A stretch of 64,000 nucleotides of DNA, taken from IMG/VR virus record IMGVR_UViG_2061766007_000271; one strand, written 5' to 3'. The notes beneath the pieces are model-generated. The model was given only the letters and a program-made list of their open reading frames with translations, made no database searches and had not been told where the DNA came from. This DNA comes from an uncultured virus (IMG/VR IMGVR_UViG_2061766007_000271). Its lineage: Duplodnaviria > Heunggongvirae > Uroviricota > Caudoviricetes. The position numbers and the translations under genes were made by a program. Positions 41,608 to 64,000 of the stretch are shown here, one piece after another. Position 1 is the first letter of the stretch; every line of letters starts with the position of its first letter.

Positions 41608-42306
41608 TTACCAGTAATAACCGCTCCTGACGAACGTCAGAATCTCTTTCTCCGTCAACTGGACGGGACCTTTTTGGAAGGAGGCGTTCCCGCTGGAATA
41701 GACAGACAGGATGTGCTCTGGCTCAAGTTTGAGAGGGTTTTCGACAAGCCCCCATGCGCCGTCGTCGCTACCATTGCTGAATCCAGCGACTTCGCCTTTT
41801 TCAAGGGCTGTCGGAATCAGACGACCGTCCTTCTCCATGAACGTCTTCACCGTGGCGAAACCGTTGCAAATAGCTGGCGTAACGCCGATTCCCCTGTCGG
41901 TGACGGTGGCTGTGTATGTCATGAACCCCTTCACGCTCCCGTCTTCCATCGGGATGTAAACCAACGTGCCGAAAGGAATCCACTCGATGATGTAGTTGCC
42001 CTTGTCGTCTTTGTTCTTCGTCTTGACCACGGACAACTGACCGACTCCGTTCTCGTCGAACTTGATGCGAAGAAGATAGTTGATGTTCGCTCTTTTGATT
42101 TCAAACTTGACGACGGGGCTTCCCTTCTCGTCCTTGACTGGGTTCCCGTCAGCGTCAAGCACGGGAACACCGTAAGGGGTCGCGTAATGAATTCTGAAAT
42201 TGTAGTACCAAGCGTCCGTATCAACGGTGCCATTATCATTCGTCTTCGCATAGACGAACGCCGTGACGACAAGCAGTAATGCGAATAAAATTTTTTTCAT
42301 AGTCAT
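41608..42306 (-). CDS. secreted protein, YxTPYGV family
   Basis: Signal peptide ending VYA; YATPYGV, DRGIG.TPA.C, GSDDGAWGLVE.PL. Confidence 0.7.
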   Translation of the reverse strand: MTMKKILFALLLVVTAFVYAKTNDNGTVDTDAWYYNFRIHYATPYGVPVLDADGNPVKDEKGSPVVKFEIKRANINYLLRIKFDENGVGQLSVVKTKNKDDKGNYIIEWIPFGTLVYIPMEDGSVKGFMTYTATVTDRGIGVTPAICNGFATVKTFMEKDGRLIPTALEKGEVAGFSNGSDDGAWGLVENPLKLEPEHILSVYSSGNASFQKGPVQLTEKEILTFVRSGYYW

Positions 42307-42315
42307 GCTCCTTTG

Positions 42316-44613: not shown

Positions 44614-44686
44614 GTTTTCTCCTTTNNNNNNNNNNCAGTCCCAACAACGCGACACTTCCATCAGATTTGTCCATGTTTTCTCCTTT

Positions 44687-44865: not shown

Positions 44866-45162
44866 TCACTTGTAAATCACGGGGATGAAATTCTTCTCCG
44901 CACATTCGATTTCCTTCAGCATGCCTTCAGTCGGTACCCCGAACACCCATAATTCGGAGCATTCCATGAGCAACTGCATTCCAGCCGACATGCCCATGAC
45001 CCGTTGTTTGTCGTCAGCATCGTCAAGAAACTGCGTGAAGTAGATGTGCGGGGCGACAGGAAGCAACCCGTCGTCCACTGCCATACGGCAGTATTTTCTC
45101 GCATTCTCCTCGTTCTGCGCGACATCTCCCCTGTAGGGAGAACAGATGTACACTTTTTTCAT
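44866..45162 (-). CDS. nucleoside deoxyribosyltransferase-like protein (DUF4406-like)
   Basis: VYICSPY.GD, APH.YF, C.ELWVFG...GM..E. Confidence 0.7.
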   Translation of the reverse strand: MKKVYICSPYRGDVAQNEENARKYCRMAVDDGLLPVAPHIYFTQFLDDADDKQRVMGMSAGMQLLMECSELWVFGVPTEGMLKEIECAEKNFIPVIYK

Positions 45163-45469: not shown

Positions 45470-46261
45470 TCAGTCTTCCAATGCTATTCCGTTAGCCTGA
45501 CGATACTCGTCGCGCTTCTGACGATGCTCCTCCAGCACTTCTTCCACATCTTTCATATATCTCGTCGGAGTCTTGACTTTGAGTTGCATTATCATATAAT
45601 CGCTGATGCTCGGATTCGCAGCGAGCTTCAAAAGCATGTTCTTGCTGTCGAAAATCTCCTTCGACTTCTCAGACACCATCTTCTCATCAAGCGGGGTCTT
45701 CAGTAAAGCAATATGAGTATCCAAGTCGTCGTAGTAATCGTAATGATTCTTCTTGAAATATTCAATAACCTTATCTGGAATCATAGCGCAGTCTTCTGGA
45801 AAGGAGTGCTGGTTGCGAAGGAAGATGAGAATATAGTCGTTGCCATATCTGGAAAAAATGATATTCCCGCTGTCGTCATAATTCAGGATTTCCTTCAGGG
45901 CTTCGCGTTTCAAGTCGTCTGGAAGCCTCCAGTAATACAGGAATTCACTAACATAGCCTTTCTTCCACATGGCACGCAACGCCGATTCTGGAATATGTTC
46001 TCGTTCAATCAAAATGCTCGAACGGAATCTCTCGCCACCTGCCTTACACAGCTTGACCAGTATCTTTTCAGGACAGTCTTCCCGCAATGCGATTTTCAGC
46101 TTGTTCTCCCATCTAAGTTTCTTTTCCTTCAGTGCGCGTTCGCAATACGAAAACGGGACATCCGTACTGCGTAGGATGCATCCGATTTCAGTTTCATGCG
46201 CTCCATTGAAAACCGATTCAAACACACTCTTGTAGTCAATTTCATTCTTTTCCATAATCAA
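45470..46261 (-). CDS. hypothetical helical-repeat protein
   Basis: 263-aa ORF, ATGA overlap. Confidence 0.6.
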   Translation of the reverse strand: MIMEKNEIDYKSVFESVFNGAHETEIGCILRSTDVPFSYCERALKEKKLRWENKLKIALREDCPEKILVKLCKAGGERFRSSILIEREHIPESALRAMWKKGYVSEFLYYWRLPDDLKREALKEILNYDDSGNIIFSRYGNDYILIFLRNQHSFPEDCAMIPDKVIEYFKKNHYDYYDDLDTHIALLKTPLDEKMVSEKSKEIFDSKNMLLKLAANPSISDYMIMQLKVKTPTRYMKDVEEVLEEHRQKRDEYRQANGIALED

Positions 46262-47412
46262 AACAGGTTCAAACGACCGTCTCCTTTTCCTTTTGTCTTG
46301 TTCTTGTACTCTTCACATACTTCGGCGATTGTCTTTCCAGCAGACCCCTTTCCCCTTGTGAAATTAACAAAGCACTTTCCAAGCTCCGTGGAAAGGCTCG
46401 TGTTTTCACCAAGTTTGAAGCATTCCGCCCTCATGCAACCGCCCCAGATTTTATGATTCCTCAAAATCCCAGTGCCACAGCATTCGCAACCGTGCCCGTA
46501 TTCGGATGACACGGTATTATCCCCATTCAGGAACACAAGCCCGTTGGCTTCAGCAAGTTCCGTATAGCGTTTCAGCACCTTGTCCTTGATTTCATCAGAA
46601 TATTCCCTGTCGCTACCTTCGATGACCCCGTTTTCCTTGAAGTCCTTCAAGATGTCGAATCCGAATACATCGCCAATCTTGGCATATACCTTGCGTTCAT
46701 TTTCTGGCATGACGACACGGAGCTTCAATCCCTCGGCGACAAACCCGTAGCATCCAGCTTCCTTGAACATTTTGGCATACCGTTCGGCATTGTCATAACA
46801 GTATGGATAGATGAACGGGTGTAGCCTCGCAATCACCTTGAAGCCTTTGTCAGCGAGCTTCCTGACTGCATCCATTCGCCTCGTCGGTGAAATCGCTCCG
46901 CATTCTATCTGGCTGGCGATGTCGTCGTCGCAGAACGAACACGACACGGACAGCGCGATGTTCGAGTTGATAAACTCATCGGCGTAGTCCAGAAACACTT
47001 CTGGATTCTTCGTGCTCATCTGCACTGGATAATCCAATTCATCCAGAATTTTCAGGACATCGTGCGTAATCAACTCGTCCCTTTCGCACCACGGGAACGG
47101 GTCTGACGAAGCCCCGATTTTCACAGGAATCCGCTCCCTGAAAGCGACTTCCTCCGCCTTTGCATAGTCATTGGCTTCCTTCGCCATCGTCCTGTCCACC
47201 CACCGTTTGAACGCGACTGGATTGTTGCCCTCAATATACGTTTGCACGGGATGGTCTGTCCTTCTTCTTGCAAACTGGAAGAAGTCCCTCGCAAAACAGA
47301 ACAGGCATCCGTATGTACATCCGCGATACGTGTCCATGTGATATGGCACGGGGCATACCCTGAATTGAGTCGTCACGCTCGGACTCCAGAATTTCCTCTT
47401 AATTCGTTCCAT
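46258..47412 (-). CDS. radical SAM protein, spore-photoproduct-lyase-like (SplB) family
   Basis: DTYRGCTYGCLFCFAR, IG.SSDPF, STKNP, IE.GA.SP..R. Confidence 0.82.
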   Translation of the reverse strand: MERIKRKFWSPSVTTQFRVCPVPYHMDTYRGCTYGCLFCFARDFFQFARRRTDHPVQTYIEGNNPVAFKRWVDRTMAKEANDYAKAEEVAFRERIPVKIGASSDPFPWCERDELITHDVLKILDELDYPVQMSTKNPEVFLDYADEFINSNIALSVSCSFCDDDIASQIECGAISPTRRMDAVRKLADKGFKVIARLHPFIYPYCYDNAERYAKMFKEAGCYGFVAEGLKLRVVMPENERKVYAKIGDVFGFDILKDFKENGVIEGSDREYSDEIKDKVLKRYTELAEANGLVFLNGDNTVSSEYGHGCECCGTGILRNHKIWGGCMRAECFKLGENTSLSTELGKCFVNFTRGKGSAGKTIAEVCEEYKNKTKGKGDGRLNLF

Positions 47413-50290: not shown

Positions 50291-50937
50291 TTTCCATCCT
50301 TATAGTTCAAAAGCCAGTCAAACGCATATTCCTCAATCAAGGACAAGTCATCCAGCAATCTATCAACATGCTTCTTCGCGTTAGCAAAACAGGATTCCGT
50401 CGTCTTTCCCCCGCCAATCTTGACAAAGCAATCGCTTACATGCGGTTTGCTTATGTCAGTACGATGATACCTGATTTCCACACAGGCACTGTAATGCTCC
50501 ATATCGGCATGCTTCAAGATTGCCAACGGAGAAAATTCAATGCTCATATCACTTAGATTCCTCAAGTATCCGAATGTCATCATCCCGCACATCCAGAATA
50601 AATCCACTCCTTGACCATAGTACATGTCCTTGATTACCTTGATTTGTTCTGGAGAATCAAATTTTTCCTTTATTCCAGACACCCATTCCTTCATGATGGA
50701 CATCTCTTTCGTAAACCGCTCGAACATTTCAAGCCCGTTCAAATCCTGATTCATCCTGACAAGGAGGAATTCCCTCGTCCATCTGCCACAGATGCTCTTG
50801 TCCACGCAATAGATTTCTATCGCATCGAACGGAGTCAATTTACGCAATGCCTCCTCGTTCGTCCAATTGTCATAACAGTCCCTAGACACCTCGAAGACAT
50901 ATCTGCTTTTTAATTTTTTCAAATCTTTCTGGTTCAT
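50287..50937 (-). CDS. hypothetical protein, tandem family member
   Basis: KDLKKLKSR start, GGGKTTESC...LSLIEE. Confidence 0.6.
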   Translation of the reverse strand: MNQKDLKKLKSRYVFEVSRDCYDNWTNEEALRKLTPFDAIEIYCVDKSICGRWTREFLLVRMNQDLNGLEMFERFTKEMSIMKEWVSGIKEKFDSPEQIKVIKDMYYGQGVDLFWMCGMMTFGYLRNLSDMSIEFSPLAILKHADMEHYSACVEIRYHRTDISKPHVSDCFVKIGGGKTTESCFANAKKHVDRLLDDLSLIEEYAFDWLLNYKDGK

Positions 50938-51503
50938 TACATGATATATTGAAGACTTATGACGAAACTATACAATATGAGGCATGTGAAGAAGATGAGC
51001 ATGGACATAAGACCAACGAATGTCAATTTTCCTATCCAAGTGAACGAATCCATCATTTGAAGCACATTGAGAAAAAGCGAATCTTTCTTCAGTTCAAAAT
51101 ACAAATAACGCCCCATACCGCAGTTGGGGCATTTCGACTTGTTGGGGATTTCAGTACCGCAATGCTGGCAAATTCTTTTCTTGCCCGTCCACGGTTTAAA
51201 CCATATTGAATCCTTCTTTTCTTCATGCTTGACATTCATTTCATACATCCGATGTTCGAATTCAAATGGACAGTTGTATGGCACATCAAGACGATAGTAT
51301 TCATTCTTCTGATAATCTGAAACAAACATGTATTCCACATAATTGTCCATCGAGCATCCATGCCTTCTGTTGTAGAAGACGGATTTTATCCTCTCCTCCT
51401 TACAATCCACACGGCAAGGGAATATAAGGAGGAGATTCGGACAAGGATAGATGACATCCTTCATAAAATTCGGACAATGCTGGCAAACCGTGATGTCTCT
51501 CAT
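50937..51503 (-). CDS. Cys-rich zinc-ribbon protein with C-terminal TM
   Basis: MRDITVCQHC, CPFEFEH, CQHCG..CPNCG; paralogue of 57143-57658. Confidence 0.65.
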   Translation of the reverse strand: MRDITVCQHCPNFMKDVIYPCPNLLLIFPCRVDCKEERIKSVFYNRRHGCSMDNYVEYMFVSDYQKNEYYRLDVPYNCPFEFEHRMYEMNVKHEEKKDSIWFKPWTGKKRICQHCGTEIPNKSKCPNCGMGRYLYFELKKDSLFLNVLQMMDSFTWIGKLTFVGLMSMLIFFTCLILYSFVISLQYIM

Positions 51504-51506
51504 TGG

Positions 51507-52091
51507 TCAATGATTGTTGATTGAAAGCACCGCGTACTTGTCATCGTCATCCGACGCAAGAGCCTGCATGAAATCATGCTCCATGTAGGCATAAAAGTCA
51601 CCATCGTTGTCGGAGTAGCTGAACGAAGACACATTTTTGAACTTCTGCTTCATTTTCTCATAAAGCAAATCCGCGAATTTGGTGGCGAGAGGCTCAAATT
51701 CGTTATAGTCGTAATACGCGCCGTTGCAGTAGGCTTCAGCGTTAAGCTCGACATTCTGCACGCCCTCGATGTACGCATCCTGCACATCCTCGTCGTCTTC
51801 GCATCCGAATTTCCTGCACAACGCCTTGAATTCGTCGGTCGGGCTTTCCTTCTTCCAAAGAATATTCCTGTCCCTCACATTCCACATGTAGCTGTCAAGG
51901 ATTTCATGATACTTGTTCACAAAGAAATCCTTTACCTTGGATTCATCGTCGCATGCCTCGTCTTCAACATCGGAAATGAATTCCTTGTATCCCTTGTATT
52001 TTTTGATACTGTCAAAAGCGGATATGTCATTGTATGCCACGAGAAATGAACTCGAACTAGAATTCGAGACATAGCTTGTTCTTATCTTCAT
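51507..52091 (-). CDS. SNSSSSSF-motif protein
   Basis: MKIRTSYVSNSSSSSFLV start, YMEHDFM, INNH end. Confidence 0.75.
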   Translation of the reverse strand: MKIRTSYVSNSSSSSFLVAYNDISAFDSIKKYKGYKEFISDVEDEACDDESKVKDFFVNKYHEILDSYMWNVRDRNILWKKESPTDEFKALCRKFGCEDDEDVQDAYIEGVQNVELNAEAYCNGAYYDYNEFEPLATKFADLLYEKMKQKFKNVSSFSYSDNDGDFYAYMEHDFMQALASDDDDKYAVLSINNH

Positions 52092-52110
52092 GTTGAAAAC
52101 TCCTTTGTCT

Positions 52111-52677
52111 TCAATGATTATTTCTAATCCTCAAACCAAATTTTCCTTCCTTTCCTGAAACGATTCCGTACATGAAATCATGCTCCATATAGCTGTCCAC
52201 GTCATCGAAATATTCGATTACACTCATATTCCTCCACCGTAGATACATCGTCTCATAAACCGCATAGGCAAAAGCCTGAGCCATCCTTCCGATTTTCGAC
52301 GAATCGTATTTCCCATTATTGGAAACACACCCATCTATCTCCTTCTTCGCCTCATTGACAAAAGCCTGCATGCCTTCAGCATCGCAGTTCAAGCCTTCGC
52401 ATAATGTCTTGAAATCCTTGCGAATATTGGCGTACTTATTGAAAAACCTGTCTCCATAGCAGACATGATGATAATACCCGCACACCAAATCCGTAAATTC
52501 CCTCTGAAGAAACACAAGTATCTCTTTCTTATTATTGTTATGCTCCTTCACGTCCTTGATAAATCGGTTGTATCCTCGCGTATTACGACCGATTCTGTCA
52601 AAGTCGGAAATGCTGTTCCATGAAACAAGAAAGGAACTTGAACTGGAATTCGACACGTAACTTGTTCTGATTTTCAT
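52111..52677 (-). CDS. SNSSSSSF-motif protein
   Basis: Identical first 18 aa, YMEHDFM, RNNH end. Confidence 0.75.
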   Translation of the reverse strand: MKIRTSYVSNSSSSSFLVSWNSISDFDRIGRNTRGYNRFIKDVKEHNNNKKEILVFLQREFTDLVCGYYHHVCYGDRFFNKYANIRKDFKTLCEGLNCDAEGMQAFVNEAKKEIDGCVSNNGKYDSSKIGRMAQAFAYAVYETMYLRWRNMSVIEYFDDVDSYMEHDFMYGIVSGKEGKFGLRIRNNH

Positions 52678-52787: not shown

Positions 52788-53393
52788 TTACCATTCCCAT
52801 GCGCTCTTGTGTGCATCATCATTATAATCTGGATGATTCATGTTCTCGACCATCGTATAAGGTGAATTATCATCAGTATGACATACAAAGCACACGTATT
52901 TGCATGAAACCCCGTTTTCAAATGCTTCGCTCATGTTTTCACGGAGATTACGTATTGTCGGATTGTCCAAGAACATCCTGAATCCATAAGTCTCTTTTGA
53001 CTGGTTGTTTTTAAGGAACAAGTCAAATTCCATGCGAATCAATTTCCATGCATTCATAACGGGTTTTGAATCGCATTTCAACCGTTTGCAGACCAGCTCA
53101 AGCTTCTCATCCATCTTGCTCCGTCTTTCAGGATAATCATGGTATTCATACAGAAACCAATCAATATAATCATCAAACGCAGAGGAAAAACCGCTTCCGT
53201 GATTATTCTCGAATTCACTATCCATGTCGAGATTATTGTCAATGTCATATAAAATGCTTTCGACGAATGCCTTTTCATTATCTGGGGCTTTCCACGTCCG
53301 CCATCTCTGGTCTTCAAGAAAAGCGATGACCATCTGCCTTTTGAACACTTTCAGATTCTCTTCATCGAATCCTATGATAGCATAATTGCTCAT
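52788..53393 (-). CDS. hypothetical protein
   Basis: 201-aa ORF, ATGA overlap with HNH gene. Confidence 0.6.
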   Translation of the reverse strand: MSNYAIIGFDEENLKVFKRQMVIAFLEDQRWRTWKAPDNEKAFVESILYDIDNNLDMDSEFENNHGSGFSSAFDDYIDWFLYEYHDYPERRSKMDEKLELVCKRLKCDSKPVMNAWKLIRMEFDLFLKNNQSKETYGFRMFLDNPTIRNLRENMSEAFENGVSCKYVCFVCHTDDNSPYTMVENMNHPDYNDDAHKSAWEW

Positions 53394-53725
53394 GATTTCA
53401 CCTTTTCAAAATAAAACACCCCATCCCAGTCGTCTCCGTACTTCGCCTGAAGGCATTGCACATATTCGCTTTTCTTTTCCTTCCTGAATGCCTTTTTCAG
53501 CTTCTTCCTGAAGCCATCAGGATTACAGCCTTTCTTATAGTAATTGCACTGCTGGCAGGCTGGCATCAGGTTGGAAATATCATCCGCGCCGTGATTGTGC
53601 AAGGACACAACGTGGTCGAGCCTCATTTCCTCAAAACGAAGCCCGACCCCGCAATACGCGCAATGCCCTTCGGTCTTGTTATAGACTTCACGCTTTTGGC
53701 TTTTTGTCCACGTTCGTCTGCGCAT
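53390..53725 (-). CDS. HNH endonuclease (McrA-like)
   Basis: CAYCG, LDHV, NL.PAC..CN..K. Confidence 0.88.
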   Translation of the reverse strand: MRRRTWTKSQKREVYNKTEGHCAYCGVGLRFEEMRLDHVVSLHNHGADDISNLMPACQQCNYYKKGCNPDGFRKKLKKAFRKEKKSEYVQCLQAKYGDDWDGVFYFEKVKS

Positions 53726-54912
53726 TCATGCTCACCGTGTACGACCTGCAATCAGGATTGTTCCAATTGACTGGGGGAATGTCCTTGACATTGTTGTTCG
53801 TGTTATAGACAAACTTGCAATTTCCTGTATTTTCACCATTAATGGTGATTTCCTTTTCAGGACCACACCAAATCGGGCTGTATGGATACGTAGGATAATA
53901 GGGATATGTCTTTTGCGGTTGATAAGGATTCCACGGAACAGTAGGTGCAGGACTTGGTTCCGTAGGTGCAGGGACGTTGATAATCATTCCCTGATGCTTT
54001 GCAAAATCGTTGACATGCTCGTTCACAATCTTCTCAAGCTCGGTAACACGCTCTTCAAGCGTCTTCCCCTGCTCGTTCGGCTTGTCATCTTCGTCGAACG
54101 GCAAGTCCTCTGGGTTCTCATACGGGTCGAAGCTGTTCATCCCGCAGAGCAGACTGCGCTTCCATTCGTAGGATACCATGCGGTCGTGCGCCTTCTTCTC
54201 GTTCTCCGTGAATTCATGGGAACGGTGGTCTGTCCACTTCTTGTACATAGATTCGACTTCGGCGTATGTGAAGCCGAAGCTGTCCTCGTCTGTCTTGCCA
54301 GTCAAACCGTCCGCTGGCGGTTTGACGACCGCCCATTCGGGCAGTCCGAGGACGAAACCAGTCTCAATCACCTGCGACACATGCAAGTTCCACAATGGCG
54401 CGATGTCGCCAACCGTGTCGCCCCACAATGTGCCATAGCCCATGAGACCCTCGTCCTTGTTCGTGGTGTTGACGACGAACCCGTGGATTTCCTCCGCGAG
54501 GCTGTGGACGAACATGTAGAGCGTAGCCGTGCGGAGCTTCGGCGAGAGGTTGATTTGGGCGCGTCTGCTGATGTCCATGCCGAGTTCGGACATGCCTTTC
54601 ATCACGGCTGTGGAAAGCCCGACATACCCATCGCGGATGTCAACCGTGCAATGCCTGATGCCGAGATGCTTGCAGACTTTCTGGGAGTCGCTGATGTCCT
54701 TCTGCTCGCCGTTCGGCATCATCACGCCGATGACGTTTTCCTTTCCAAGAGCGGCGGCGCACAANNNNNNNNNNNNNNNNNNNNNNNNNNNNNNNNNNNN
54801 NNNNNNNNNNNNNNNNNNNNNNNNNNNNNNNNNNNAGCACGGCTGTCGTCACATTTGCCTTCTTGCACTCTTTCCTAATCCATTCCACGATTCGCTTCGT
54901 AAGTTTTCTCAT
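53688..54912 (-). CDS. nadE: NH3-dependent NAD+ synthetase with Pro-rich C-terminal extension (N gap in P-loop)
   Basis: V.GVMMP, INL...LR...LY, VNTTNKDE..GYGTLWGD, KPPADGL..KTDE..GF.Y. Confidence 0.88.
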
Positions 54913-57077
54913 AGTTTCTCCTTGTATTTCCATTCGGCTCGCCATATCGTGAAGAATATGACAACAAGATAGACGACCCATTTAAANNNNNNNNNNNNNN
55001 NNNNNNNNNNNNNNNNNNNNNNNNNNNNNNNNNNNNNNNNNNNNNNNNNNNNNNNNNNNNNNNNNNNNNNNNNNNNNNNNNNNNNNNNNNNNNNNNNNNN
55101 NNNNNNNNNNNNNNNNNNNNNNNNNNNNNATGGGGTTCGTTGTTCAGCGAGGAAAGGTACTGCTCCGCGTAGTACGGGCAATGCTTTTCGACGCGCATGT
55201 TGAAATACTCCGTCTTCAAGACATGGCGTTCCCAGAACCCGTCCAGCAGGTAGCAGTCGTGGATGCGACCGTTCCTGCTGTACTCAAGCTCATCGACATT
55301 GTACGCCTCGTACAACGACGGGTTGTTCATGCTCATCGAATGAAAGATGGAATCGTTCTCCCTGAAATGCTCGCACTGCTTGCAGATGAGGATGTCTCTC
55401 ATTACCGAATCACGTCGATTTGCAACGCCTCCATCGCCTTGAGAGCGGTTTCCTTCGCTTCGGGGGTCACGCCTTCCGTCTGGTCGGCATAGACCTTGAT
55501 GACCGTGTTCGGGAACGCAGCGCGGAGAATCGCAACGTTGTTCAGAACGCAANNNNNNNNNNNNNNNNNNNNNNNNNNNNNNNNTTGTCCTCGTCCGTGT
55601 CATATCCGCCTTGCGCGAACACGTAGTTGCTCGGAATGCCGAACACCTTTTCGGCAATCACCATCGGCAACTCGAAAGAGCCGAAAGTCGGCTTNNNNNN
55701 NNNNNNNNNNNNNNNNNNNNNNNNNNNNNNNNNNNNNNNNNNNNNNNNNNNNNNNNNNNNNNNNNNNNNNNNNNNNTCGTAAGGGAGTTTCATTCCTTCG
55801 AGCGTCTGCATGTAATCGGTGCCGTGCGTATCCTGCGTGGCGACCACGTAGCCGTCGAAGTTGTTCAAAAAGTCCACCATTCGAGGGACGAGGGCAATCC
55901 NNNNNNNNNNNNNNNNNNNNNNNNNNNNNNNNNNNNNNNNNNNNNNNNNNNNNNNNCTTCTGCATGTCAACGACCACGAACACTTTTTTCGCTTCTTTCT
56001 TGATTTCTTCCGTCATGATTTGTTTTCCTTATTTTTTACGGTTCTTGTCTATCTGATTTTCAATTGTTCCGACTGTCGGCTTGCCGTTGTCNNNNNNNNN
56101 NNNNNNNNNNNNNNATTTCAGCAACGTCTCCCTGTCCGCGCCTTCGGCAATCAGCTTGCGCACGAGCGTCGAGCTGACGATGTTCGTCTTGGGGCGTGGC
56201 ACGACGAGGAACTTGTATTCATCAAGCAACTTGTCGGCATAATGCCATTTCCCCGCGTTCAGGTCGTCCCATTCGTCCTTGCCCATGACGATTGTCCCGA
56301 TTCCCAATTCGGGATGCGACGAGAGGAATTTGTACGTCCGTTCCTTCTGCTCGACCACCCGAATGGTGTCGATAATCTCGCTCTCGTAGTATGTCTTGCC
56401 ATCCACTTCGCATGGATTCGCGATGTCGATTTGGTACTTGCAACAGATGTTCTGCACGACCGCCTTGCGCCATGCCAACGGCTTNNNNNNNNNNNNNNNN
56501 NNNNNNNNNNNNNNNNNNNNNNNNNNNNNNNNNNNNNNNNNNNNNNNNNNNNNNNNNNNNNNNNNNNNNNNNNNNNNNNNNNNNNNNNNNNNNNNNNNNN
56601 NNNNNNNNNNNNNNNNNNNNNNNNNNNNNNNNNNNTCGTTTTTCGGGAATTTCAAATCAATTCACGAATGTTTTTCATGCCTTTCCTGTATTCCTTCAAC
56701 GTAGTACAGGAATTGACGAGCTTGGAGAATTCAACCGCCCGTCTGAAAATCAGACGGTNNNNNNNNNNNNNNNNNNNNNNNNNNNNNNNNNNNNNNNNNN
56801 NNNNNNNNNNNNNNNNNNNNNNNNNNNNNNNNNNNNNNNNNNNNNNNNNNNNNNNNNNNCAATGCCGTGATGATTTTATCCTGCTCGTTGCGATAACGCC
56901 AGTCGTCGATTTTGTGAGAACCGAGATATTCCTCGATTTCGCAGTCCATGTGGGTCTCTTCCTTCGCCTCGCGAATCGCGGNNNNNNNNNNAGAGAGCTT
57001 TGCTACTGGGCTTCCGTTGCATTCCGTCACCTTGCAGACGATGTTCAGACCTGGAAGATACGTGTCNNNNNNNNNNC
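54913..57077 (-). other. fragmented, diverged second copy of the NAD cluster (hypothetical, pncA, nadD, Nudix, pncB pieces); probably a second strain
   Basis: Same gene order as 57143-61668, separated by N gaps, many synonymous differences; a second nadE start at 57078-57147. Confidence 0.75.
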
Positions 57078-57142
57078 AGTCGTCACATTCGCCTTTTTGC
57101 ACTCTTTCCTAATCCATTCTATGATTCGCTTCGTAAGTTTCT

Positions 57143-57658
57143 TCATAATTTCTCCTTATATTTCCATTTATATCGCCAAGCTGCAAAAAAAAACACAGCC
57201 AAATAAACAATCCACTTAAACAAATCGACCATCTTTTCCCATAATGTCATGTCCTGCCATTTATGGTAATTCTTGAACTTCTTATACCCGCATATCGGGC
57301 AGTCAACCTTGTTCGGTATGACACGCCCGCAATGCTGGCATACGCGAGTCTTGCTGAAATACCTTGTGAAACCGTAGTTTACATCATGCAGTTCATTGTT
57401 CAACAACGAAAGGCACTGTTCACAATAATATGGACATATTTTGGTGATTTCCAGCTTGAAAAACTCCGTTTTCAAGGCATGGCGTTCCCAGAATCCATCA
57501 AACAGTTCGCAATCGTGAATCCGACCGTTTCTGCTGTATTCGAGGTCATCCCCCTCATATGCTTCATACAGAGTCGGATTCCTCATGCCGAGCGTATCAA
57601 ACAGAGAATCGTTCTCTCTGAAATGCTCGCAATGCTTGCAGATGAGAATGTCACGCAT
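57143..57658 (-). CDS. Cys-rich zinc-ribbon protein with C-terminal TM
   Basis: MRDILICKHC, CPYYCEQ, CQHCG..CPICG. Confidence 0.65.
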   Translation of the reverse strand: MRDILICKHCEHFRENDSLFDTLGMRNPTLYEAYEGDDLEYSRNGRIHDCELFDGFWERHALKTEFFKLEITKICPYYCEQCLSLLNNELHDVNYGFTRYFSKTRVCQHCGRVIPNKVDCPICGYKKFKNYHKWQDMTLWEKMVDLFKWIVYLAVFFFAAWRYKWKYKEKL

Positions 57659-57660
57659 TA

Positions 57661-58251
57661 TCAGATGATATCGATTTGCAGACCTTTCATTGCATCAAGA
57701 GCCGTCTGCTTACTTTCAGCCGTAACGCCTTCCGTCTGGTCGGCAAAGACTTTGATGACAGTATTCGGGAACGCAGCGCGCAAAATCGTGGCATTGCTCA
57801 GAACGCAAATGTCGGTGCAAAGACCGCCGACGATGATTTCATCGATGTTACCGTCAAAACCGCCCTGCGCGAACACCGCATTGCTAGGAACACCGAACAC
57901 CCCTTCCGCGATGACCATCGGGAGTTCAAAAGAACCAAATGTCGGCTTTTCAATCGCGCCGAGATACTTGTCGCCCTTGGCTTCCATCGCCTTGAGGATG
58001 TCAGGATTGATTTCCCAGTCTTCCGTGCCTTTGATGCAGTGCTTTACAGGAAGTTTCTTACCTTCAAGGGTGTCCAGATAGTTCTCTTCATGCGTATCCT
58101 GCGTGGCGACGACATAGCCATCGAAGTTCTTGATGAATTCAACCATGCGAGGCACAAGTGCCTGTGCCTGTGGGCTACCGAGGCTCATGTTGATGAATCC
58201 ATTCTGCATGTCAACGACGACAAACACTTTCTTTTCAATTTTTTCCATCAT
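57661..58251 (-). CDS. pncA: nicotinamidase (isochorismatase family)
   Basis: VVDMQNGF, TQDTH, HC, K.TFGS, GLCTDICV. Confidence 0.9.
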   Translation of the reverse strand: MMEKIEKKVFVVVDMQNGFINMSLGSPQAQALVPRMVEFIKNFDGYVVATQDTHEENYLDTLEGKKLPVKHCIKGTEDWEINPDILKAMEAKGDKYLGAIEKPTFGSFELPMVIAEGVFGVPSNAVFAQGGFDGNIDEIIVGGLCTDICVLSNATILRAAFPNTVIKVFADQTEGVTAESKQTALDAMKGLQIDII

Positions 58252-58253
58252 GA

Positions 58254-58886
58254 TTAGTTCTCCTTGTTTTTACGATTCTTGTCTATCTGATTTTCAATTG
58301 TTCCGATTACAGGCTTTCCATTATCGTCCAATTCATTGTAGGCGATACAACGGTACACCGCATCACTGATGTATTTCAGCAACGTCTCCCTGTCCGCGCC
58401 TTCCGAAATCAGCTTTCTCACCATTGTCGAGCTGACTATATTTGTTTTCGGACGCGGGATGACATAGAATTTGTATTCATCAATCAGCTTGTCGGCGTAA
58501 TGCCATTTTCCAGCCAGCAAATCATCGAGTTCATCCTTGCCGACGACGATTGTCCCGATTCCGAGTTCAGGATGCGACGAGAGGAATTTATACGTCCGTT
58601 CCTTCTGCTCAACCACCTTGATGGTGTCAATTATCTCGCTCTCGTAATATGTCTTGCCGTCCACTTCGCATGGATTCGCAATGTCGATTTGGTACTTGCA
58701 ACAGATGTTCTGCACGACTGCCTTACGCCATGCCAAAGGTTTCCACGACTTCTTATAATCATGTTCCGTCACGCCAACCACAAGCTTATCGCCGAACATA
58801 TCGTAAAGATGTTCGATAATCGCCTCGTGCGACAGAGTAATCGGGTCGAATGCCCCGCCGTAATAGACTTTATTTCTTTTTTCCAT
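58254..58886 (-). CDS. nadD: nicotinate-nucleotide adenylyltransferase (NadD-like)
   Basis: YGGAFDPITLSH, VG.D, W..AD.L, SST.VR. Confidence 0.78.
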   Translation of the reverse strand: MEKRNKVYYGGAFDPITLSHEAIIEHLYDMFGDKLVVGVTEHDYKKSWKPLAWRKAVVQNICCKYQIDIANPCEVDGKTYYESEIIDTIKVVEQKERTYKFLSSHPELGIGTIVVGKDELDDLLAGKWHYADKLIDEYKFYVIPRPKTNIVSSTMVRKLISEGADRETLLKYISDAVYRCIAYNELDDNGKPVIGTIENQIDKNRKNKEN

Positions 58887-58933
58887 ATTGCATCATCTCC
58901 TTTTTAACATGCTAACTTAGAGATTCTGTCATT

Positions 58934-58961
58934 AATATACATCGTTTTTCGGAAATTGCAA
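58934..58961 (-). promoter_or_regulatory. class I promoter, internal to NAD cluster
   Basis: TTGCAA-16 bp-TATATT. Confidence 0.7.
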
Positions 58962-58962
58962 G

Positions 58963-59937
58963 TTACTTCCCGAATGTTTTTTCGTGAAGATTAAGCAGAT
59001 TCATCTGTAATGCAGAGTATTCTTTTGCCTTTGTGAAAATCGTCCTGTGTTCAGACATGACGTTTTCAAGCGGGAACGTGGCGATTTCCACCAGCTTCAA
59101 TTCGGCAATGTCGTCGTCGGGCTTCGGATTCCCGCCAGTCCTGACCATCGCGAACAGCGTCGTGATGATTTTGTCCTGTTCATTGCGGTAACGCCAATCA
59201 TCGATTTTGAACGAGCCGAGATACTGCGACACCTTGCAGTCCAGATGCGTCTCTTCCTTCGCTTCGCGAATCGCTGCGTCCTCATGACTATTGTCGTTCG
59301 GGTCTGCGAATCCGCCGACCAGACGGTAATGTATCTCCTGCGGTTTTCTCGCAAGCCAAATTTTCTGACAGGTGTCATCGTCAAAGATGGCGCAGTCCAC
59401 CGTGCAGAATGCCGTCGGATAACGCTGTTCCGTCGCATAGACCACCCCAGCCCTCCATGACGGTGCATCGTAGGGATTGCGTCCCAACACTTTGCATGCC
59501 TCGCGCCAATTAGAGTTCGTCGTGGTTTCGAGCTTTACGAGCTTATGCGTACCGTGATAGCGGTTCACGACTTCAGCTTCAGTGCCGTAATATGTCATAT
59601 CGGCATTTTCATCCTTGCAAGTCGTCGTAATCAGCTCGTCAAGCTGTTTCGACCAAAATTCATCACCATTTGCATCTTTCAGATAAATGATGTCCCTCTC
59701 CGTCAAACGGTCGCCATAGGCTTCGAGAATCATCGTCCGCCTTGCATTAAAGTCAAGCGGGTGATTTTTCGTAGCTTTCATAAACGATATGCCAAGCACG
59801 ATAATATGCTTGTCGTGTTTTGTAGCCAAGAATTTATCGATTGGCTCCCTATACCCGTCCAAAAGCACAGGGGTCTGAAATTCGCCAATCAACACACCCA
59901 CGTCCAGTTTTTTCTTTCTATTGGTCTTTTCCATCAT
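58963..59937 (-). CDS. NadM-Nudix protein (degenerate adenylyltransferase domain plus ADP-ribose pyrophosphatase-like Nudix)
   Basis: IGEFQ, KNHPLDF..R..MI, W..QL, RAGVVYA, TVD, Nudix box GGFAD....E.AA.REAKEET, DDWRY, DDIAE. Confidence 0.85.
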   Translation of the reverse strand: MMEKTNRKKKLDVGVLIGEFQTPVLLDGYREPIDKFLATKHDKHIIVLGISFMKATKNHPLDFNARRTMILEAYGDRLTERDIIYLKDANGDEFWSKQLDELITTTCKDENADMTYYGTEAEVVNRYHGTHKLVKLETTTNSNWREACKVLGRNPYDAPSWRAGVVYATEQRYPTAFCTVDCAIFDDDTCQKIWLARKPQEIHYRLVGGFADPNDNSHEDAAIREAKEETHLDCKVSQYLGSFKIDDWRYRNEQDKIITTLFAMVRTGGNPKPDDDIAELKLVEIATFPLENVMSEHRTIFTKAKEYSALQMNLLNLHEKTFGK

Positions 59938-60223
59938 ACGCTCCTTCCAGTTTTTCATCGTTAATCAGAACGACATTGTTCGCATGAAACAAATACACCC
60001 CTCCATTTGTCGTCTCAATCTGGATTTGGTCGGAATTCTCATAATCATACCATTTTCTCACCTTGAGCACTCTCACCGTCCCGTCGGGGAACCTCGCCTC
60101 GCACTTGTTGAATTTCCAATGCGTGTCGAAAATGACACCGCCTTTGTTGCATGAAACAAGAAGCAACCCCAAAACCACGGTAATTGCCAATGCCAAAAAT
60201 TCAAGCTTGAAAATATTTTTCAT
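59918..60223 (-). CDS. small lipoprotein
   Basis: Lipobox LVSC after hydrophobic signal. Confidence 0.7.
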   Translation of the reverse strand: MKNIFKLEFLALAITVVLGLLLVSCNKGGVIFDTHWKFNKCEARFPDGTVRVLKVRKWYDYENSDQIQIETTNGGVYLFHANNVVLINDEKLEGAYDGKDQ

Positions 60224-60288
60224 AATACTTCTCCTGTACTGAATCCTACATAAAGGGGCGCGGAAAATGCGCCCCTCCCGTCATGTGC

Positions 60289-61668
60289 TTATGCTACCGC
60301 AAGCTGTTCAGGCGTGAGCTTCGCGTAACGTTCGGCGAAACGCTTCTCGAATTGAGCCTTGATAGCCCAAGGCTCGTTGGTCAAACGCCAATTGATAGTG
60401 CGTTGCAGATAGTTCACGTAGTCTTCGCTACGGCACATGCCCTTGCCTGGGTCGTCGGAGAGCTTGGCGACTGGGCTTCCATTGCATTCCGTCACCTTGC
60501 AGACGATGTTCAGACCTGGAAGATACGTGTCGGTCGCGAGATAGCCACCGATTCCAGAACAGGGTTCAAGCTCATCGATGAAATGACGGTAGATGTCGGT
60601 CATGTTCGCGAATGTCAAACTGTTGGAGAACAACAGCGTCTTGCTCGCGATGTTGATGCTGTAGCAGTCGTACAGAGACAGGATTTTTTCGCCCCACACA
60701 TACGGATTACCAGAATCATGACGGGGACCACCGAACAAGGTCGCGTAGGTCAGGTCGAAGTCGCGCAGGAAGACATCAGTGCCGATTGTGTCGGACAGCA
60801 TTATTCCATTTCTTGTTTGATATACGTCAGTCCACGCTTTCATGGCGAAGTGATTGGAATAAGCTGGATTGTTACGAGGGTCTCCCTGACCGACGCACTG
60901 CACGAATTCGTGCGCCATAGTACCAACGGCTTTCACGCCATGCTTAATGGCGAGTTCGACATCGGACGTGCCGACAAATCCTGGGGCATTCGCTTTCAGA
61001 TAGCCAACGAGCCAGTCATGGCTTTCGGCGGACAACCGACGGCGAAGACCGAATTCGGAGAACTTACCAATTTCATAAGTGCCGTTCTTCAAGCCATTGA
61101 CCTTGGCTTCCGTCCTTCTCTTGAATTCGTCGAACAACAACGGCATTTCGCCAGTGAACGCAAAATAGACTTCGGACACGATTTGCAGAAGAGCGATTTC
61201 GTACATGGATGTATTCAGATGAAGACCAAGACCCATCTTGTAACCAGTCGGGCTGGTGATGTCAGGTTCGATTTCACCGAATTCCACAGCAAGTCCGCAA
61301 TCAGTATAAGGTACAAGATGCACCTTGTCGGTCTGGTCGCCGTATGGATTTTCGGTATTGCCGTCCTGAATGACGATTTCCTCGCGGACGGGATGCCAGA
61401 AACGGAGCCAGTTCAGATAGCCTTCGGAAAGCCAAGGCTGAGCGATACGGAGCTGGTTGATTTGCTCAGGAGTGAAACGCAAAGAGCAGAAATAATCGAA
61501 CTGCTCTCGGATTTCCTGAACCATTTCCTTTGTGAAATAGACTTTGCTTCTGCACTTGAACGTCCAGCGAGTGCGGTAGTTGTTGAACAGCAGGAAGAAC
61601 ACGTTGCCCATGCTGAATTTGTAGGCATCGGTACCCAACAGGGATGTAATAATCGGTTTCAGTTTCAT
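60289..61668 (-). CDS. pncB: nicotinate phosphoribosyltransferase
   Basis: TDAYKFSM, SEFGLRRR, GTS, GTMAHE, RHDSG, GIG, KLSDDPGK. Confidence 0.93.
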   Translation of the reverse strand: MKLKPIITSLLGTDAYKFSMGNVFFLLFNNYRTRWTFKCRSKVYFTKEMVQEIREQFDYFCSLRFTPEQINQLRIAQPWLSEGYLNWLRFWHPVREEIVIQDGNTENPYGDQTDKVHLVPYTDCGLAVEFGEIEPDITSPTGYKMGLGLHLNTSMYEIALLQIVSEVYFAFTGEMPLLFDEFKRRTEAKVNGLKNGTYEIGKFSEFGLRRRLSAESHDWLVGYLKANAPGFVGTSDVELAIKHGVKAVGTMAHEFVQCVGQGDPRNNPAYSNHFAMKAWTDVYQTRNGIMLSDTIGTDVFLRDFDLTYATLFGGPRHDSGNPYVWGEKILSLYDCYSINIASKTLLFSNSLTFANMTDIYRHFIDELEPCSGIGGYLATDTYLPGLNIVCKVTECNGSPVAKLSDDPGKGMCRSEDYVNYLQRTINWRLTNEPWAIKAQFEKRFAERYAKLTPEQLAVA

Positions 61669-61750
61669 ACTTTTTTTCTCCTTTTTTTAACGTTTTAACT
61701 TAGGATTGATGCCATGCGCCAACCGAAGCGCACGGACTTTTCATATAATT

Positions 61751-61778
61751 AATATACACCAGAATTCTGAAAATGCAA
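61751..61778 (-). promoter_or_regulatory. class I promoter upstream of pncB
   Basis: TTGCAT-16 bp-TATATT. Confidence 0.7.
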
Positions 61779-61779
61779 A

Positions 61780-61968
61780 TTATTTCTTGCTGGATTCCTT
61801 CATTTGCTTCCCGAATTCCTGAATCAGCCCTGAAAGTGTTGCTGATTCGTCTTTTTCACCGTCCTCAAATTCGCGACGGCGTTTAGGTGTATCCTCGATG
61901 CACATAAAATCGAGGAATGCGTCAATCTTCTTGATGATTTTCTTCCAAATGTCTTTCATGCTTTTCAT
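61780..61968 (-). CDS. small hypothetical protein
   Basis: Short ORF after promoter variant at 62002-62029 (TTGACT-16-CATATT). Confidence 0.45.
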   Translation of the reverse strand: MKSMKDIWKKIIKKIDAFLDFMCIEDTPKRRREFEDGEKDESATLSGLIQEFGKQMKESSKK

Positions 61969-62135
61969 CCTTTCTAACATTTTAACTTAGGATTTTACAT
62001 TAATATGACTTGTTTTTTGAAAAAGTCAACTTATTATACTAAAGAAAAATAAAGAAAAAGTAAAATAATTGAAATTAATTTTTACTTATAAAATAGCTTT
62101 CTATAAAAAAGAAATTTCAACAGGATAGAATAGAT

Positions 62136-63014
62136 ATGAAAAGCAAATTCAACAAGATAACCGAAAAACTCTTTCTTGCCCACGTAAAGAAAGCGAATTT
62201 GACATTAAATATGGAAGAAGTGGAAAAGAATCAGCATGGTGTCCAAGTCGAACTAGACGGTCATTTCGACAAAGCCCCAATCACCGAATCGTTATCAGAG
62301 GAAAACAAGAATCTGCACAATCTCGCTGAAGAATTCGCAAACGCATTGTGGGACTACAAAAAAGAGAATCCGAACGACGACTTGCTCGATGAATTATCGA
62401 AAGACGACCTGAATCCGAACAAATACGAGCTTGTCCATGACGAGAACAAAAACAAGATGTACTTGTTCGTTCCGTTCACATCCTTGTATGAATCAAAGGG
62501 CAAACAGCACGAAGCTATTTTTGAAGATACATACAATAATATCCAGAACGCATTCAGGGAATTCATCAAAGAAGACTTGGCACTTTACCGCGTCAATCCG
62601 AATACGAGCATTTCATTCTTCACGAAAGAACGTGGAGCCACTAACAATATTGAAGGATATGCAGTCACGTTTGAAATCGAAAATGTTTGCAGTAAGAACA
62701 ATGACAGCCTTACCACAACAGTATCCATGAACATCAAGAAAGGTCAGGAAGTCATTTTCGACAACGATGCCAGAAACACATTTGAATTCAGCAGATACGA
62801 CATCAAGAAGGCATCCACGCACGACGACCAGAAAATCACATTCACTCCTTACAAGGGAATCGCCTCGTTCTTCCACAGCGTGTCCCAAAGCGAAAAAGCA
62901 TTTAAGGAACTGGAGGATAAAATCAAGAGACTGCAAGCCGACGTAAGGCAGTTCATGTGGAAGTCGATAGACTTGTTAATGAGGTCGTTCAAGGAAGAAA
63001 CCAGTTCAAAATAG
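62136..63014 (+). CDS. hypothetical protein
   Basis: 292-aa ORF, first plus-strand gene. Confidence 0.7.
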   Translation: MKSKFNKITEKLFLAHVKKANLTLNMEEVEKNQHGVQVELDGHFDKAPITESLSEENKNLHNLAEEFANALWDYKKENPNDDLLDELSKDDLNPNKYELVHDENKNKMYLFVPFTSLYESKGKQHEAIFEDTYNNIQNAFREFIKEDLALYRVNPNTSISFFTKERGATNNIEGYAVTFEIENVCSKNNDSLTTTVSMNIKKGQEVIFDNDARNTFEFSRYDIKKASTHDDQKITFTPYKGIASFFHSVSQSEKAFKELEDKIKRLQADVRQFMWKSIDLLMRSFKEETSSK

Positions 63015-63293: not shown

Positions 63294-64000
63294 ATGAACA
63301 GGAACATCAAAATAGCAAAGCAATTGATAGGGTTGGCAAAAGACTTGCTTATGGACACGAACATCACCGTCACTAATGATGGAAGTAAAGAGAGTAATTA
63401 TTCGATTAATTATGCTATGAATGGAAATATTGCCAACAAACCTGGCAAATATAATAATTTCTCTGGCCATATTGATTGGAAGAATATCAATGGATGGGTG
63501 GAAAATGCGATATTTGAGTTAAATGAAGGAACGATTTCAATTACTTTTGAAAAAGGTACTTGGTATAATGGTACTTGGGAAAATGGTATTTGGGAAGGTG
63601 GCATTTGGAGAGGTGGCACTTGGAAAAATGGTACTTGGAAATATGGCTCTTGGAAAGGTGGTACTTGGGAAAATGGTCATTGGTATAGAGGCGATTGGTA
63701 TAATGGCATTTGGAAAGGTGGAATTTGGGAAAATGGCACTTGGTGGAATGGTACTTGGGAAAAAGGCACTTGGAAAAATGGTGCTTGGTGGAATGGCACT
63801 TGGGAAAATGGTACTTGGGAATATGGTGGTTGGATAGATGGCACTTGGAAAAATGGTACTTGGGAATATGGCATTTGGAAAAAAGGCATTTGGGAAAAAG
63901 GCATTTGGGAATATGGTGTTTGGGAATATGGTGTTTGGGAAGATGGCACTTGGGAAGGTGGAAAAGATAGGAAGGGCAATGAGCATGGAGCAGGCGACAG
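63294..64000 (+). CDS. GxWxx pentapeptide-repeat protein with shared leader, 3'-truncated
   Basis: Not in ORF track; ATG 63294 MNRNIKIAKQLIGLAKDLLMD, open to window end. Confidence 0.8.
   Translation, partial: MNRNIKIAKQLIGLAKDLLMDTNITVTNDGSKESNYSINYAMNGNIANKPGKYNNFSGHIDWKNINGWVENAIFELNEGTISITFEKGTWYNGTWENGIWEGGIWRGGTWKNGTWKYGSWKGGTWENGHWYRGDWYNGIWKGGIWENGTWWNGTWEKGTWKNGAWWNGTWENGTWEYGGWIDGTWKNGTWEYGIWKKGIWEKGIWEYGVWEYGVWEDGTWEGGKDRKGNEHGAGD
63555..63959 (+). repeat. 27 x 15-bp coding tandem repeat (consensus GTWEN)
   Basis: GGY-ACT-TGG-GAA-AAT-like units counted by hand. Confidence 0.9.

Follow-up and report, generated by a model that had tools for sequence, protein, structure and literature searches.

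Depletion of nicotinamide adenine dinucleotide (NAD+) represents a common bacterial defence. The phage answers to it that have been described, NARP1 (Adps and Namat), NARP2 (Nampt and Nmnat) and NARP3 (PnuC and NadR), are all amidated or riboside routes and, according to the accessible parts of these sources, have reportedly been tested at the bench. In its accessible text, the NARP1/2 preprint leaves nicotinic acid, NadE, PncA, PncB, Preiss and deamidated all unmentioned; the corresponding parts of two comparative surveys report phage NadV, NadM and NadR only, and those of a review of November 2026 cover NARP1 and NARP2 only. Deamidating (Preiss-Handler) gene sets of phages are found in the accessible part of a purely computational study with annotation by KEGG/BLAST, which describes gut 'NAD-jumbo phages' and reports that, of 668 jumbo phages from the gut, 174 have a complete set for salvage or for the Preiss-Handler route (PMC11662467, Microbiome 2024). 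Here we analyse a cluster of this kind in the IMG/VR record IMGVR_UViG_2061766007_000271, a virus of the Caudoviricetes; the whole stretch of DNA analysed, 64,000 nucleotides long, is called the window. The cluster is probably a single-copy set of a rumen phage that would rebuild NAD+ from nicotinamide by the deamidating route.

Among the phages of the 2024 study, as far as its accessible sections and figure labels go, Kuafu_71 carries a pncB-nadD-nadE cluster and the Kuafu phages are assigned to Bacteroidota hosts; in Fig. S7 Zhurong_5 is labelled 'pncA pncB', after which come the letters of nadE/nadD/nadM, overlapping one another, and a phage pncA is mentioned (PMC11662467). A sequence-only reading of the window had put the route forward as possibly novel in phages, which fails, Preiss-Handler clusters of gut jumbo phages being in print in that same source. 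The cluster belongs to the kind described in 2024, and what is specific to this instance is the decayed NadM half of one protein, an outlying NadD-like protein, a tail on NadE and a shared leader motif. In the literature, we came across no bench experiment on a Preiss-Handler route of phages, on an anti-NADase role for it, or on an escape of nicotinic acid mononucleotide (NaMN) or nicotinic acid adenine dinucleotide (NaAD) from NADases. If true, a deamidating route from NADase-released nicotinamide would be a fourth phage answer to NAD+ depletion. The present instance adds little to the case for such a fourth answer because its kind is already catalogued, and it offers a compact, well-conserved seven-gene version to clone.

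Gene content and the proposed pathway

From position 61668 downstream the cluster reads PncB, a 101-amino-acid open reading frame (ORF), a NadM-like/Nudix protein, a NadD-like protein, PncA, a zinc-ribbon protein, NadE and an HNH endonuclease. The five genes for PncB, the NadM-like/Nudix protein, the NadD-like protein, PncA and NadE lie in the same orientation on the minus strand and span 53688..61668; every gene between 50 and 62 kb of the window is on this strand. The seven genes of the cluster are:

60289..61668, minus strand: PncB, nicotinate phosphoribosyltransferase (NAPRTase), 459 amino acids (PF04095 1.9e-46; PF17767 9e-16)
59918..60223, minus strand: small lipoprotein-like ORF, 101 amino acids (hydrophobic N-terminus then LVSC, read from the sequence)
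58963..59958, minus strand: NadM-like/Nudix two-domain protein, 331 amino acids (NUDIX 3e-15)
58254..58886, minus strand: NadD-like HIGH-superfamily adenylyltransferase, 210 amino acids, presumed NaMN adenylyltransferase (PF01467 6.8e-12)
57661..58251, minus strand: PncA, nicotinamidase, 196 amino acids (Isochorismatase 7.2e-18)
57143..57658, minus strand: zinc-ribbon protein with a C-terminal hydrophobic helix, 171 amino acids (CxxC pairs and hydrophobic tail, read from the sequence)
53688..54912, minus strand: NadE, NH3-dependent NAD synthetase family (NAD_synthase 4.3e-30; 71 N at 54765-54835)

ORF positions and family matches bear out the five named co-oriented genes that the sequence-only reading had placed in this span; its description left unmentioned a second copy and 10 runs of N, which are treated in the next section. 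An independent version of the locus is found on L002, an N-free contig of 14,091 bp from another record that matches window positions 62032 to 53385 collinearly. There each gene is present once, i.e. pncB and the genes for the lipoprotein-like, NadM-like/Nudix, NadD-like, PncA, zinc-ribbon, NadE and HNH proteins.

The assignment of PncB, as a family assignment made from its sequence, is secure. The protein scores 298.8 bits against TIGR01514, above the cut-off of 269.55, its PDB sequence matches are NAPRTases in six cases out of six, the histidine stretch GTMAHE is retained, and the L002 protein is 97% identical. Its match to the phage Nampt family phrog_448 reaches only 3.9e-09. For PncA, the best PDB matches are the nicotinamidases 1ILW, 2WT9 and 3PL1, and the alignment to 1ILW and 3PL1 retains Asp/Lys/Cys and Asp/His/His positions, which we take to be the catalytic triad and the metal site, respectively. 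The nadE ORF as listed (53688-54764) begins at an N-run, its true start being at 54912; this long ORF belongs to the fragmentary second copy or is common to both copies. Against TIGR00552 (cut-off 63.65) the truncated window ORF scores 96.9 bits and the intact L002 protein 142.4 bits. The visible catalytic motifs that had been credited to the four pathway enzymes are indeed present in PncB and PncA, whereas the SGGxDS ATP-pyrophosphatase motif of NadE lies under the 71 N in the window and is seen intact, as SGGKDS, in L002. NadE is a short, ammonia-type enzyme followed by a C-terminal extension of roughly 150-170 amino acids (window 53688-54190; L002 8960-9465), which is coiled-coil-like, then proline-rich, with a Cys-bearing stretch at the end. 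Despite indels, its reading frame is preserved in the window as well as in L002, and no relatives of it were recognised with Pfam, a PDB sequence search or the ESM Atlas.

The NadM-like/Nudix protein yields an AlphaFold2 model of high confidence (predicted local distance difference test, pLDDT, 92.1), for which the top six Foldseek matches are NadM-Nudix structures (2QJT, 2R5W and 2QJO; E 2e-16 to 2.4e-13, about 350 columns). At the place of GRFQ...(H/T)xGH in relatives, the NadM-like domain has GEFQTPVLLDGY: (H/T)xGH is replaced by LDGY and the Arg of GRFQ by Glu. NWREAC stands in place of SGTxxR, so that the SxTxxR motif is lost as well. This loss is confined to the window and its three nearest relatives, i.e. 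4 of 69 aligned sequences; among relatives from 80 IMG/VR loci, (H/T)xxH is kept in 62 of the 71 in which the pattern was found, the other nine loci giving no match. In the Nudix domain, G215, G216, F217, R231, E232, E235 and E236 (GGF...RE..EE) are invariant in the 69-sequence alignment. We thus read the protein as a probably dead adenylyltransferase half fused to a Nudix hydrolase that appears live. The earlier name 'NadM-Nudix' is apt for the two-domain architecture and for the Nudix residues, and it does not extend to the NadM catalytic motifs. This is a clear example of a NadM-Nudix protein with a decayed adenylyltransferase half beside a separate adenylyltransferase.

According to the proposed pathway, PncA would convert nicotinamide to nicotinate, and PncB would use nicotinate together with phosphoribosyl pyrophosphate (PRPP) and ATP to form NaMN. 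The NadD-like enzyme would then adenylate NaMN to NaAD, and NadE would amidate NaAD with ammonia to give NAD+. The Nudix half of the NadM-like/Nudix protein would cleave ADP-ribose into AMP and ribose-5-phosphate, and this is probably the protein's only contribution. PRPP would be supplied by the host. The phage could benefit by keeping up NAD+ during infection, either against NAD-cleaving defences or for its own demand. The gene content fits this route from nicotinamide through nicotinate, NaMN and NaAD to NAD+ with splitting of ADP-ribose, as it had been proposed from the letters of the window, and the cluster recurs in independent samples; less in keeping with that proposal are the degenerate NadM half and the weak NadD.

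The two remaining products of the cluster are small. The lipoprotein-like ORF is 73% identical to its L002 counterpart and had no family match in profile scans; its LVSC is, by our own reading, a putative lipobox. The zinc-ribbon protein is 74% identical to that of L002 and has a paralogue outside the cluster (50937-51503, 29%, also zinc-ribbon/membrane). It was considered as a pathway component, which is unsupported because of this paralogue.

The regulatory features of the cluster are the following:

61748..61778, minus strand: predicted promoter upstream of pncB, TTGCAT-N17-TGTATATTAAT, with an extended -10 (exact match to the element)
58931..58961, minus strand: second predicted promoter, upstream of the NadD-like gene (the recurring element without mismatch)
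61688..61703, minus strand: leader motif CTAAGTTAnnnnGTTA just before the pncB Shine-Dalgarno (motif count)
58905..58920, minus strand: leader motif CTAAGTTAnnnnGTTA before the NadD-like gene (near-copy upstream of the L002 NadD-like gene)
61975-61990: leader motif CTAAGTTAnnnnGTTA of the small ORF 61780-61980 (motif count)

The two promoters that had been called at 61751 and 58934 are confirmed, both being identical to an element found repeatedly along the window, and a sigma-70 scan found them too (61779-61751 and 58961-58934). The recurring element, TTGCA-N17-TGTATATTAAT, is present in five exact copies, all five on the minus strand, and in 16 copies when up to two mismatches are allowed, versus 1.95 expected in the window. 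The leader motif CTAAGTTAnnnnGTTA has three matches versus 0.12 expected and none elsewhere in the 64 kb. It is followed by AAGGAG in three transcription units, those of the small ORF 61780-61980, of pncB and of the NadD-like gene. Two contigs from other records, L003 and L004, contain pncB with its upstream region, and the motif is kept upstream of pncB in L002 (3659-3674), L003 (900-915) and L004 (5686-5701). The pncB leader also has a conserved GC-rich hairpin-like stretch; an Rfam scan of 57100-62300 gave no match at E up to 1. The motif could serve as an operator or as a site of translational control.

A more far-reaching interpretation can be formulated from these elements. The cluster would be a fourth phage pathway of NAD+ reconstitution that beats NAD-cleaving defences by a deamidated route, in which a Nudix-only NadM-Nudix protein would turn ADP-ribose into AMP and ribose-5-phosphate and perhaps act in sensing or regulation, a divergent PPAT-like NadD (PPAT, phosphopantetheine adenylyltransferase) would carry out the adenylation, and the shared CTAAGTTAnnnnGTTA would co-regulate the three transcription units. 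We regard this whole as tentative and, taken together, doubtful.

Scaffold structure and origin of the window

The window contains 20 runs of N, with 821 bases in total, and ten of them, with 679 N, are located at 54765-57076. Two features of this region are relevant:

54836..57066, minus strand: fragments of a second, diverged cluster copy between the N-runs (blastn and translations)
57078..57146, minus strand: first 23 codons of the intact copy's nadE (translation MKKLTKRIIEWIRKECKKANVTT), followed by a 10-N gap

Translations of the second copy comprise a C-terminal piece of pncB, a Nudix piece, the NadD-like protein, PncA, the zinc-ribbon protein and the start of NadE, and the copy aligns to 57079-60531 in eight collinear blastn segments with 73.7-95.9% identity. 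It opens with a 74-nt pncB piece, after which there is a 1.18-kb jump across a 10-N gap, and the lengths of its N-runs track the spacing of the single-copy relative L002. The nadE start at 57078-57146 is at the DNA level 91% identical to 54845-54934, and its ATG shares bases with the zinc-ribbon gene's stop codon. In L002, the zinc-ribbon gene runs directly into an intact NadE of 412-435 amino acids, according to the start chosen. The PncA, zinc-ribbon and NadE-start pieces of the second copy are 89-97% identical to L002, to which they are nearer than to the window's intact copy; the latter shares 81.6% identity with L002 over the whole stretch.

Logan contigs of four runs were aligned on L002, not on the window, and the L002 bins 3300-3516 and 9159-9375, which no contig covers, are uninformative. 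Record 8 of X3 (2,227 nt) covers the NadD-like, PncA/zinc-ribbon and NadE genes, and record 20 of X5 covers the zinc-ribbon gene into NadE. From X1, the probable source sample, record 4 covers the end of the zinc-ribbon gene into the body of NadE and record 2 extends from pncB to the start of the NadD-like gene. The contigs of three samples agree with one cluster copy. All 15 contig joints listed, out of 24 on L002, are skips, and none of those listed goes back. The source sample contains several diverged variants of the cluster, with contig depths of 11.4, 12.1 and 13.4.

Similar assembly features are seen elsewhere in the window. A helicase segment is present twice in series (14526-14916 and 14927-15331) across a 10-N gap, with 79% DNA identity over 405 columns and nearly the same protein; this repeat at 14526-15331 is the same serial-variant scaffold artefact as that of the NAD cluster. 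At four of the 10 ten-N gaps (20527-20536, 32924-32933, 35830-35839 and 44626-44635), 50 nt are exactly duplicated on both sides, recurring 1-10 nt past the gap. These duplications are unmerged contig overlaps, and reading frames across the gaps are therefore unreliable. Another duplication is that of 17033-17082 at 17576-17625. Most likely, the second copy of the NAD cluster is a co-occurring variant that was scaffolded in series, and the true locus would be a single-copy seven-gene cluster, with two copies of the phage's promoter driving its transcription. Because variants that occur together have been strung one after another in this scaffold, counting genes from it uncritically would give wrong numbers.

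Several lines of evidence bear on the origin of this DNA. Phage-type genes of the window encode DnaB, a primase, an SNF2 helicase, YopX and several phage-only families, and matches to PHROGs include a dNMP kinase (phrog_139, 8e-47), a helicase (phrog_62, 4.5e-111) and phrog_7293 (1.1e-71). Many ORFs of the window are ORFans, transcription runs in one direction up to near 62 kb, and the cluster is flanked by ORFans and phage-family genes with which it is co-oriented. The GC content of the cluster (0.41-0.48) matches the remainder of the window. Among 5.8 billion proteins, the nearest PncB other than itself has at most 64% identity. Large contigs (202, 391 and 656 kb) encode relatives of proteins from the cluster: a NadD-like protein with 97% identity is encoded on a contig of 202,160 bp, and a NadM-like relative with 79% identity on one of 655,914 bp. 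Parts of the stretch were detected in 20 runs belonging to 11 studies, the best being from bovine gut. The gene families, the promoter and the relatives on large contigs point to a large uncultured rumen phage as the source, an origin that has to be deduced in this way because the window is without a capsid or terminase gene. The worry that the block might be misassembled host DNA is not borne out; what was found instead are two variants joined in series.

One further gene overlaps the end of nadE:

53390..53725, minus strand: HNH endonuclease, 111 amino acids (PF01844 8.7e-11; phrog_2118 6e-27)

This protein has 90% identity to that of L002 and is probably the product of a mobile or homing gene outside the pathway.

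Other genes in the window are described here for completeness. For the AAA_28 protein at 4572-5138, PHROGs gives a match to a phage family of thymidylate-kinase type. It was considered as a NadR-type riboside kinase and rejected, the PDB giving only weak matches to adenylate/deoxynucleoside kinases and no NadR structure. Two radical-SAM-type proteins are encoded, at 24819-26036 and 46258-47412; the former, which is the phrog_7293 match (1.1e-71), shares about 36% identity with proteins annotated as radical SAM that come from 172 records, most of them phages of Klebsiella, Enterobacter and Cronobacter of around 177 kb. Auxiliary genes encode a ferritin/Dps-like protein (5660-6196), a TibC-like glycosyltransferase of the heptosyltransferase family (30811-32181) and a DUF7768/nucleoside 2-deoxyribosyltransferase-like protein (44866-45162). 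Paralogues are found at 51507-52677 (two adjacent ORFs of 188 and 194 amino acids, 37% identity) and at 40211-43206 (three adjacent ORFs, 27-50% identity). Transcription direction and GC skew both flip near 62 kb, and beyond that point, at 63542-63956, lie diverged tandem repeats of about 75% identity with offsets near 105 and 180 nt.

Weighing of the alternatives

A number of observations weigh against a single-copy, complete and phage-borne deamidating route. A Pfam family scan that took in 69 window ORFs (19 + 50) gave no match to a PRPP synthetase family, in agreement with what had been read from the window before. No capsid or terminase gene is present among the window ORFs, and contigs such as those aligned here show presence, not absence, of a tandem copy. 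PncA scores 21.5 bits against the NCBIfam PncA model, for which the cut-off is 174, and so remains below the equivalog score. The Nudix box has one extra residue and a His for the usual final Gly. The best NCBIfam model of the NadD-like protein, TIGR00482 (NadD), gives 50.6 bits over residues 9-149 versus a cut-off of 112.45. Its top PDB sequence and Foldseek matches are PPAT, and by fold PPAT (VIA Z 12.0) and NadD (Z 11.6) are tied. The model of this protein is moderate (pLDDT 69.6) because only six close relatives, from a word-index search, were obtained and its profile and model were built on eight sequences. Finally, the second-best solved relative of NadE is 3fiu, presumably the nicotinamide mononucleotide (NMN) synthetase of Francisella, which concerns the choice between NaAD and NaMN as substrate of NadE.

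With regard to the scaffold, the second copy could be real, i.e. a diverged tandem duplication of the NAD cluster in the phage, given that the scaffold as it stands places two copies in series and that an identity of 74-96% is below typical strain variation. The first copy's nadE, however, ends after 23 codons at a 10-N gap, the second copy begins with a 74-nt piece of pncB before a 1.18-kb jump across another such gap, and its N-run lengths follow the spacing of a single-copy relative. L002 and the contigs of three samples run from the zinc-ribbon gene straight into nadE, the source sample contains several diverged variants at differing depths, and the helicase repeat of the same scaffold would wreck the enzyme if it were real. 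A real duplication is therefore quite improbable in our view. Less probable still is that the block is bacterial DNA, from the host or a prophage flank, misjoined to phage sequence. The enzymes do belong to ordinary bacterial families and a structural phage gene is missing from the window, but the cluster carries the promoter element that recurs along it, its GC content of 0.41-0.48 matches the rest, its flanks are co-oriented ORFans and phage-family genes, and among the 120 PncB matches listed there is no close named bacterial homologue. In addition, pncB together with the region upstream of it recurs in L002, L003 and L004, and in L002 so does the entire cluster. Misjoined host DNA is thus unlikely because of the phage families, the recurring promoter, the relatives on large contigs, the distance of the nearest PncB and the recurrence in samples.

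Concerning the enzymes, the phage set could be incomplete, 'NadD' being a PPAT-like or other adenylyltransferase and the host NadD carrying out the third step. The scores of this protein below all NadD cut-offs, the PPAT structures as its top PDB sequence and Foldseek matches with the tied Z scores, and an N-terminal FDPITLSH that resembles the PPAT stretch in the alignment could be explained in this way. The similarity to PPAT covers residues 6-64 only, in contrast to the eight-sequence profile, which aligns at full length only to NaMN adenylyltransferases (e.g. 5llt 1-185, E 7e-6; further alignments are to 2h29 at 7-157 and to 3h05 at 8-170). NadD TIGR00482 over residues 9-149 remains the best NCBIfam model, the CoaD model TIGR01510 giving 38.5 bits. 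In the window and in L002 alike, the gene has that of the Nudix protein on one side and that of PncA on the other; in L003, pncB is followed by NadD-like and PncA-like matches. A stretch reading GKDELDDLLAGKW...PRP resembles what we take to be the GxDxxxxxxxW pattern of NadD. An incomplete set is rather unlikely on balance. The NadD-like protein is the weakest link of the pathway; its context favours a pyridine nucleotide as the probable substrate, and the call 'nadD' of the sequence-only reading is right as to the best model, with the reservation that every curated cut-off is missed and that PPAT is equally near by fold. Another possibility is a route as in Francisella, in which NadE would be an NMN synthetase converting NaMN to NMN and the adenylyltransferase would then convert NMN to NAD+, with no NaAD. 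The rank of 3fiu, presumably an NMN synthetase, among solved NadE relatives (E 1.1e-27) and the presence in the cluster of a protein of NadM architecture, a family that normally uses NMN, would suit this variant. On the other hand, 2e18, which ranks first among the solved relatives of NadE, is recorded as an NAD synthetase, and the NadM-like domain is without (H/T)xGH, the Arg of GRFQ and SxTxxR. With these motifs lost, the NMN step would fall to the NadD-like enzyme, and bacterial members of the NadD family usually prefer NaMN. This variant is the less likely because the NadM half looks inactive, and we hold it to be unlikely. The single-copy cluster with a deamidating route through NaAD thus remains the probable explanation.

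Comparison with known systems

In INPHARED (50,697 records), a PncB homologue was found in 14 records, a NadE homologue in 49 and a homologue of the window PncA in 7, and megablast with window positions 53300-62000 gave no match there. In IMG/VR, a search with PncB gave no pattern match, so that the window is absent from the collection searched. On a human-gut scaffold (L001), pncB adjoins nadE. Within 10 kb of the NadM-Nudix relatives in the 80 IMG/VR loci, a PncB-like gene was found in one case, NadE-like genes in two, and NadD-like or PncA-like genes in none.

Regarding the NARP systems, the 69 window ORFs gave by Pfam no match to a phosphoribosyl-synthetase family as would be relevant for NARP1, the sole phosphoribosyltransferase being of PncB type and no dedicated Adps or Namat model having been used, and no PnuC or NadR match as in NARP3. 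Where NARP2 has Nampt and an active Nmnat, the phosphoribosyltransferase of the window is a NAPRTase equivalog and the NadM motifs are lost. In the accessible descriptions, NARP2 and the NadV and NatV (NadM-Nudix) proteins of Vibrio phage KVP40 share with the window a phage-borne ordinary salvage, the NadM-Nudix architecture and a start from nicotinamide and PRPP. As described there, that route is a two-enzyme amidated one via NMN, whereas the window has a NAPRTase of PncB type and a NadM half without catalytic motifs; PncA, the NadD-like enzyme and NadE are additional in the window cluster when compared with these accounts.

The NadM-Nudix proteins of Synechocystis and Francisella (2QJO, 2QJT and 2R5W) have the same two-domain architecture as the window protein, in which the Nudix catalytic residues are kept. 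The identity is 17%, the placement of the domains differs (template modelling score about 0.45), and the window clade is without (H/T)xGH and SxTxxR. The Preiss-Handler salvage of bacteria (PncA, PncB, NadD and NadE) comprises the same four reactions and enzyme families, and PncB and NadE of the window pass equivalog scores. The window set differs from it in being phage-borne with phage promoters, in the NadD-like protein and PncA that are below curated scores, and in the NadE extension.

Another deamidating-type cluster is present in the human gut phage phAss-1 (OQ749652.1, genetic code 15). At 96860-101298 it has, in a row, genes for a nicotinamidase, a PRPP synthetase and a 'nicotinamide' phosphoribosyltransferase, together with a small ORF and a NadE homologue that carries the annotation hypothetical. 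In contrast to the window, phAss-1 thus encodes a PRPP synthetase of its own, neither a NadD-like nor a Nudix gene is seen in that stretch, and its proteins are 39% identical to those of the window. In the accessible part of the phAss-1 paper, 'Nicotinamidase' occurs only in a table and the cluster is not discussed.

A further likeness is with the NAD-jumbo phages. As the accessible part of their description has it, these are, like the presumed source of the window, large uncultured gut phages, from ruminants and others, with clustered pncB, nadD and nadE, with pncA and nadM drawn, and with a host-independent supply of NAD+ predicted. Compared by that description, and not by sequence, the window differs from them in its degenerate NadM-like half and in its NadD-like protein, a divergent outlier. 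A further difference from what is described there is that the window's cluster includes two small, unrelated membrane-type ORFs. Finally, strong AGGAG ribosome sites and a promoter with TTGCA and TGnTATATT suggest a Firmicutes-type host for the rumen phage, unlike the Bacteroidota of the Kuafu phages.

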